This document shows, in pieces, positions 1 to 230 of a stretch of DNA of 230 bases. The translations under genes and the position numbers were made by a program. Source of the stretch: Escherichia coli (lineage in GTDB: Bacteria > Pseudomonadota > Gammaproteobacteria > Enterobacterales > Enterobacteriaceae); NCBI RefSeq assembly GCF_003334255.1, contig NZ_QOWU01000279.1; one strand, 5' to 3'. The notes beneath the pieces are model-generated. The model ran no database searches, was not told where the DNA came from, and saw only the letters and a program-made list of their open reading frames with translations. The first letter of the stretch is position 1; the number at the start of each line of letters is the position of its first letter.

Positions 1-230
1 CCTGGTGCAGTGGGGCCCGCAGGCCCACGGGGACCGGCTGGTGCAGCTGGTCCCAAAGGTGATGCAGGCCCGGCAGGCCCCGCAGGAAAGGATGGTACCG
101 CCGGAGCGGAAGGTAAGGCAGGTCCGGCAGGGCCACGAGGTGAAAGGGGACCAGCGGGGGCACAGGGTGTTCCGGGGCCGGTTGGTCCGGCAGGTCCTGC
201 GGGTAAAACGGGGCCACGAGGTTTGCAGGG
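1..230 (+). CDS. Internal fragment of a collagen-like triple-helix repeat protein (Gly-X-Y)n; 5' and 3' ends lie outside the window
   Basis: Frame 1 (codons from nt 1) has no stop codon and Gly (GGN) at codons 2,5,8,...,74 without a single break, plus a partial GG at 229-230. Of 25 triplets, 13 have Pro in X (GPA x8, GPR x3, GPK, GPV). All four + strand stop codons (60-62, 114-116, 141-143, 204-206) fall in frame 3. Frame 2 is also open but has no Gly periodicity. Codon positions 1 and 2 are almost entirely G/C while position 3 is mixed, which fits this frame. Confidence 0.82.
121..194 (+). repeat. Exact 11-nt direct repeat ggtccggcagg, copies at 121-131 and 184-194 (span covers both copies)
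   Basis: Read directly from the sequence; flanking bases differ on both sides (120 a vs 183 t; 132 g vs 195 t). Both copies are in frame and encode G-P-A-G. Confidence 0.9.
130..222 (+). repeat. Exact 12-nt direct repeat gggccacgaggt, copies at 130-141 and 211-222 (span covers both copies)
   Basis: Read directly from the sequence; flanking bases differ (129 a vs 210 g; 142 g vs 223 t). Both copies are in frame and encode G-P-R-G. A third G-P-R-G at 22-33 uses different codons (ggc cca cgg gga). Confidence 0.9.

Follow-up and report, generated by a model that had tools for sequence, protein, structure and literature searches.

The window, i.e., the whole stretch of 230 nt analysed here, lies within a single coding sequence (positions 1..230, + strand, frame 1) and corresponds to codons 323–398 of a 520-aa Stf-like fibre protein, where it forms a central part of the second collagen-like domain (Col2). 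This assignment was based on the translation, on the ORF coordinates, and on a 100% match to PV340549.1 47436–47665 within CDS XSB41645.1. In the corresponding locus of Escherichia phage PhiR12_1 (L001), the window occupies nt 9001–9230 and the CDS spans L001:8035–9597, with an ATG start and an intact reading frame of 520 aa. The CDS starts 183 nt 3' of the tail-tip gene gpJ, whose product scored 2113 bits on the NCBIfam model NF049904 (lambda_TipJ; cut-off 1950). In three E. coli prophages, the genes were arranged in the order gpJ, an optional lom, the fibre gene, a gene for a 193-aa DUF4376 (PF14301) protein, and a YadA-like gene. Both in PhiR12_1 and in these three prophages, the fibre gene thus belongs to a tail-gene module and is positioned directly 3' of gpJ, i.e., the inspection of neighbouring genes proposed in the first-pass annotation yielded a phage structural gene immediately 5' of the fibre gene.

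Frame +1 of the + strand was free of stop codons and encoded one leading Pro, 25 complete Gly-X-Y triplets, and two bases of the next Gly codon. The earlier observation of an uninterrupted tract of at least 25 Gly-X-Y triplets in the window was hence confirmed; when its mononucleotides were shuffled 2000 times, runs of Gly at each third position never exceeded 7 in any of the + strand frames (mean 2.9), versus 25 in the actual sequence. In the gene context, the uninterrupted tract exceeds the window and covers aa 312–428 with 39 Gly positions, adding four triplets upstream and nine downstream. Pro occupied the X position in 13/25 triplets and the Y position in a single one (GVP, nt 166–174), which reproduces the counts given previously, while Ala was found in Y in 12/25 and Lys in X in 3/25 triplets. 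The GC content by codon position was 90/82/41%, the pattern of GGN/CCN/GCN codons read in frame 1, and a third-position GC of 41% versus 82–90% at the other two positions fits frame +1 only. The window contained 17 CpG dinucleotides (observed/expected 0.63). Four stops interrupted frame +3; frame +2 and the three frames of the opposite strand were open, as the GGN/CCN/GCN composition seldom makes stop codons. The reverse strand carried Pro, not Gly, at each third residue, and reverse-strand ORFs of 403 and 242 aa overlapped the fibre gene. Frame +2, the reverse frames, and these long reverse ORFs were rejected as composition artefacts, having neither Gly periodicity nor annotation.

The full-length product comprises five segments. 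An N-terminal phage_tail_N domain (PF08400, aa 1–134, Pfam E = 2.4e-42), whose last ~40 residues are helical and rich in Ala and Glu, is followed by a first collagen-like domain (Col1, aa 136–251) with one break (GDPGGPPG at 187–194) and a PF01391 match at aa 139–249. A Phage_fiber_2 repeat (PF03406, Pf2, aa 260–301, E = 8.7e-16) separates Col1 from Col2 (aa 312–428), which consists of 38 uninterrupted triplets plus a closing Gly and holds the window. The protein ends in a 94-aa domain (aa 427–520) without a match in Pfam, NCBIfam, or PDB. The coiled coil between the core of the N-terminal domain (PfN) and Col1 is short, with only ~40 residues of helix-type sequence versus more than 100 additional residues in the fibre of phage PhiR5_2. 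Residues 1–91 matched residues 1–91 of PDB 9E7M chain Ta, the collar domain of Stf as resolved by cryo-EM in Ur-lambda (E = 4.5e-29). Among the PHROGs, phrog_366 (“tail fiber protein”) matched the protein best (7e-122), and aa 300–439 aligned to phrog_1806 (“collagen like minor tail”). The expectation that the functional domains lie outside the window was thereby supported, given that the full CDS encodes a tail-fibre domain at the N-terminus, a Phage_fiber_2 repeat, and a distinct globular domain at the C-terminus. The Pfam collagen model PF01391 gave no match on Col2, neither in the full protein nor when aa 305–434 were scanned alone, even at E ≤ 10. Given the perfect Gly-X-Y pattern, this miss is probably due to the low-complexity/composition-bias correction of HMMER, and phmmer aligned aa 308–426 to collagen chains. 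Domain-based screens could accordingly miss Ala-rich collagen tracts of this kind. PF06820 (PfC) was absent from the fibre protein in Pfam searches, even at E ≤ 10.

The alignments of the collagen-like tracts to rat collagen alpha-1(I) and alpha-2(I) chains were the top PDB sequence matches (E ~1e-72 to 1e-74), and taken at face value they would speak for a metazoan collagen exon or eukaryotic contamination. Each of these matches was, however, a sum of 12–15 repeat alignments that overlap one another and have very high bias scores. At the DNA level, E. coli phage and prophage records match at 100% identity, and the ORF is unbroken and encodes phage domains on either side. Pro in Y amounted to 1/25 in the window, versus ~33% in human fibrillar collagens (PMC3368898). 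A metazoan origin is therefore considered to have a negligible probability. Extension to the full ORF, which had been suggested as a check, returned 520 aa with an ATG start and no introns, the Gly periodicity continued on both sides of the window, and matches to metazoan collagens were driven by composition only. The argument that Pro resides in X rather than in Y agrees with the statistics of the prophage collagen-like protein family, in which Pro makes up 48.1% of X and 7.4% of Y positions, a distribution read as compensating for absent prolyl hydroxylation (PMC3368898).

A second alternative is a bacterial cell-surface collagen-like adhesin of the Scl1/Scl2, Lcl, or BclA type instead of a virion part. 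The NCBIfam models SclB, SclA, and Lcl were hit with E-values of 1e-42 to 5e-34, BclA was among the PDB matches (1e-6), and a YadA-like (Eib-like) adhesin gene is encoded two genes 3' of the fibre gene. The model scores nevertheless remained far under the curated cut-offs (146.5 vs 325, 130.1 vs 400, and 117.6 vs 500 bits), and the alignments covered mainly Gly-X-Y repeats and adjoining low-complexity sequence. In addition, no LP.TG motif (LPXTG) was present in the fibre protein, the N-terminus is the PF08400 tail-fibre domain and not a signal peptide, and the gene immediately follows J within the tail module. We hence regard a cell-surface adhesin as very unlikely. From the candidate types named in the first-pass annotation, the phage tail-fibre stalk was retained, whereas the Scl/BclA-type adhesin was discarded based on the NCBIfam scores and the missing LPXTG.

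Two further genes lie 3' of the fibre gene. The DUF4376 protein is named “tail fiber assembly protein” in PhiR5_2 and matched PHROG 1141 (“tail fiber protein”), with no Caudo_TAP-type match reported. In PhiR12_1, this putative fibre assembly gene (L001:9614–12781; PV340549.1 48049–51216) is split by an insertion of ~2.6 kb carrying, on the minus strand, genes for an IS21-family transposase (NF033546, 310 bits) and an IstB helper ATPase (NF038214, 270 bits). Alignment with the undisrupted copy of E. coli SCU-104 showed an overlap of ~9 nt between the two gene halves, which is consistent with a target-site duplication. The YadA-like trimeric autotransporter gene, two genes 3' of the fibre gene, was found in PhiR12_1 (L001:13577–14656) and in all three prophages examined (L003:7878–9038, L004:4510–6021, L005:4487–5950) as prophage cargo beside the tail module. 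The C-terminal anchor of its product is conserved, with PhiR12_1 and SCU-104 sharing 60% identity over 166 aa, and the protein resembles the Eib immunoglobulin-binding proteins of P-EibA, the phage whose orf-401 also matches the window.

Homologues of the window were searched in 50,697 phage records via blastn. All 230 nt were recovered at 100% identity in Escherichia phages PhiR12_1, PhiR12_2, PhiR12_2_star, and PhiR12_4, while PhiR5_1 matched at 99.6% identity, PhiR5_2 at 100% identity over nt 1–217, and P-EibA orf-401 at 92% DNA identity over nt 1–61. Near matches were found in 39 of 5426 complete E. coli genomes, all of them chromosomal and at up to seven places per genome. Using the whole gene as query, at least 80% of its length was detected in 26 complete E. 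coli genomes, and the best 12 were full-length at 98–99.9% identity. The E. coli matches were annotated as “tail fiber protein” or “prophage tail fiber N-terminal domain-containing protein,” and the gene is a “hypothetical protein” in the PhiR12 records. The PhiR12 and PhiR5 records were deposited as complete phage genomes with named E. coli hosts. An exact-sequence cluster look-up of the 520-aa protein returned no match, and no publication on the PhiR12 or PhiR5 phages was found in a literature search by phage name. As the window matches, at 100% identity, a CDS that directly follows J in lambda-like Escherichia phages, the proposal of a prokaryotic or phage collagen-like stalk could be narrowed down to the phage.

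Some copies of the gene are decaying. The copy of E. coli SCU-104 (NZ_CP053284.1, L003:5080–6597) matches the window at 100% and carries a TAG stop in Col2 about 12 codons 3' of the window (GPTGP*GPTG) as well as a 15-aa in-frame deletion in Col1, and RefSeq lists it as two pseudogene fragments. This decay does not change what the collagen tract is. It does bear on the possibility that the sampled copy is a dead remnant in a decaying prophage, which would share the ancestry proposed here with no fibre being made. The disruption of the DUF4376 gene of PhiR12_1 by the IS21-family element could be read in the same direction, as could the frameshifted stf of lambda PaPa itself (PMC12617516). Against this stand the intact 520-aa ORF in the complete genomes of PhiR12 and PhiR5, the aforementioned copies in 26 complete E. 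coli genomes, 12 of them full-length, and the register-preserving indels described below, which imply continuing selection on the triple helix. A dead remnant is consequently judged improbable, even if less so than the adhesin or the metazoan exon.

Inside the collagen domains, length polymorphism among alleles was restricted to in-frame indels. A segment of 54 nt encoding six Gly-X-Y triplets (70..123, + strand) was present in the window and in PhiR5_2 and missing from the alleles of E. coli STEC17-183 and JE86-ST05, as determined from DNA and protein alignments; its boundaries are ambiguous within the flanking repeat. The segment is flanked by a direct repeat (family D1, spacing 54 nt, both copies on the + strand), with a left copy of 14 nt, GCAGGCCCGGCAGG (64..77), and a right copy, GCAGGTCCGGCAGG (118..131), which is identical to the left copy at 13/14 positions. 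The lengths of these indels were in all cases divisible by three residues (18 aa for the one in the window and 3, 15, or 21 aa for the others), so that the Gly register is preserved. In-frame indels together with flanking repeats point to putative repeat-mediated slippage or recombination, which would act under selection for triple-helix register.

The PhiR5_2 allele diverges from the window at 218..230 (+ strand), with the blastn match ending at nt 217 and GPRGLQ in the window versus GPQGPAG in PhiR5_2. The fibre of this phage (PV340546.1, L002:4627–6588) has 653 aa and is encoded in a tail-gene layout like that of short-tailed Stx phages. Between the end of Col1 and the stop codon, its gene shares 94.6% DNA identity with the PhiR12 fibre gene, whereas the N-terminal domain and the long coiled coil differ. 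A shared 3' part combined with a differing N-terminus would result from swapping a shaft-plus-tip cassette between fibres with different attachment domains, and these alignments indicate that such a cassette has been exchanged between the lambda-like PhiR12 fibre and the PhiR5_2 fibre.

The C-terminal domain (L001:9313–9594 in PhiR12_1, aa 427–520) has a narrow distribution. Its 93 C-terminal residues were found by tblastn in eight of the 50,697 phage records, all belonging to the PhiR series, and a word-indexed homology search retrieved E. coli sequences at ≥ 90% identity only, for which reason no informative alignment could be built. In an exhaustive search of a library of 1.8 billion proteins, the matches below 90% identity were all weak and multi-stretch (E 1.8e-10 to 1e-3, 27–34% identity) and belonged to large proteins with tandem T/S/G/A-rich repeats resembling bacterial Ig-like domains. 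They provide at most a weak hint at a beta-sandwich and might also stem from compositional bias. A single-sequence AlphaFold2 model of the domain was all-beta with a mean pLDDT of 38.5 and was unusable. Judged by its position in the fibre, the domain probably binds a receptor.

Based on the sequence identity, the position of the gene in the tail module, the domain architecture, and the in-frame length polymorphism with its conserved Gly register, we are highly confident that the window encodes a stretch of collagen-like shaft. The shaft belongs to a side tail-fibre protein that occurs in lambda-like temperate coliphages and in E. coli prophages, is of the EPclC type, and has an N-terminus homologous to lambda Stf. 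By analogy with homologous fibres, for which trimerisation, triple-helix formation, collar docking, and receptor binding are assumed to be transferable, the tract most likely serves as a trimeric triple-helical spacer from the collar to the distal tip. The Gly-X-Y tracts of three chains would wind into a collagen triple helix, in which Gly at each third residue would permit tight packing, and Pro in the X position, Ala, and charged residues would stabilise the helix without hydroxyproline. The resulting thin, semi-rigid rod would bridge the N-terminal collar and the small C-terminal globular domain. The collar domain is predicted to dock on the tail at the tube/tip junction, and the C-terminal domain is likely to seed trimer formation and likely to make contact with a receptor on the cell surface. 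As with lambda Stf, this contact may lead to faster adsorption ahead of the binding of the central J fibre to its own receptor.

A more far-reaching reading, which we put forward tentatively and consider possible rather than probable, is that the collagen tract is not just a passive spacer. Short, near-identical repeats of the GCAGGnCCGGCAGG type might act as recombination sites by which the length of the shaft is tuned in 9-nt steps, the same shaft-plus-tip cassette might have moved between lambda-type fibres (PhiR12) and fibres in an Stx-type context (PhiR5_2), and the 94-aa tip, which is without a close homologue outside E. coli, could represent an uncharacterised receptor-binding fold.

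The class of collagen-like tail fibres is already known and was characterised in 2012 (PMC3368898), and the sequence itself is already in GenBank and RefSeq. The locus offers a clean example of hydroxyproline-free collagen in a virus and also illustrates how temperate coliphages that differ in tail-gene layout exchange fibre parts as modules. The ligand of the small tip domain would in part determine the host range of these prophages, some of which adjoin virulence-associated genes.

The closest known systems are the E. coli prophage collagen-like proteins EPclA to EPclD, which were defined by Ghosh et al. 2012 (PLoS One 7:e37872; PMC3368898). EPclC proteins are described as having PfN, two Col domains split by Pf2, and a C-terminus that shows no relation to PfC, with a long PCoil often lacking (PMC3368898). 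The fibre analysed here shares this domain order (PfN, Col, Pf2, Col, a non-PfC C-terminus, and no long PCoil) and the location in a prophage tail module, i.e., PF08400, two Col domains of which the first has the break, an interposed PF03406, a non-PfC C-terminus, and a short PCoil were all found. Among the EPclC members, ECED1_2081 of E. coli ED1a has 520 aa with Col lengths of 118 and 117, and ORF-401 of P-EibA is also listed (PMC3368898). The total length of the fibre and its Col lengths (~118 and 117) agree with ECED1_2081, a likeness that was drawn from tabulated lengths and architecture. The conserved G-X-P-G-G-P-X-G break of the first Col domain (PMC3368898) recurs as GDPGGPPG in Col1, and Pro is common in X and rare in Y both in the family and in the fibre. 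The window departs from the family mean in having Ala in 48% of Y positions vs 21%, and Lys in X in 3/25 triplets vs 0.3% for Arg plus Lys in X. Recombinant EPclA formed a trimer with a collagen CD signature and a Tm of 42 °C, as determined by CD and SEC-MALLS, and its C-terminal PfC domain serves for trimerisation and refolding (PMC3368898).

EPclB fibres of short-tailed Stx phages (933W L0121/Z1483, Sp5 ORF67/ECs1228, phi24B gp61) likewise have two collagen domains split by Pf2, but carry PfC (PF06820), which is missing from the fibre. The 653-aa fibre of PhiR5_2 combines an EPclB-like tail-gene context and a long coiled coil with nt 1–217 of the window at 100% identity. In this group, immuno-EM placed Sp5 ORF67 at the tail (PMC5155283), and phi24B gp61 assembles into six lateral fibres, each a trimer, in which order was confined to the N-terminal 141 residues and the collagen-like shaft was flexible; the authors doubt that gp61 binds the terminal receptor BamA (bioRxiv 10.64898/2026.04.10.717836). 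In Ur-lambda, the gpV/gpM junction is encircled by twelve Stf N-terminal domains, and the side fibres are trimers, each with flexible linkers to three collar domains (PMC12617516). The fibre resembles lambda Stf in its homologous collar domain, the Phage_fiber_2 repeat, the position of the gene 3' of J, and the small accessory gene that follows, and presumably also in being a trimeric fibre that speeds up adsorption. Unlike in lambda Stf, the shaft is made up of two collagen-like domains, the tip is an unrelated 94-aa domain, and the accessory gene encodes a DUF4376 protein. Scl1/Scl2, BclA, and Legionella Lcl have in common with the fibre a (Gly-X-Y)n tract without hydroxyproline, a trimeric stalk, predicted in the case of the fibre, and a globular domain nucleating folding, a role that the tip of the fibre may share; they differ in being anchored to the cell (LPXTG or exosporium) instead of forming parts of a virion, and in their preference for Thr or Gln in the Y position.
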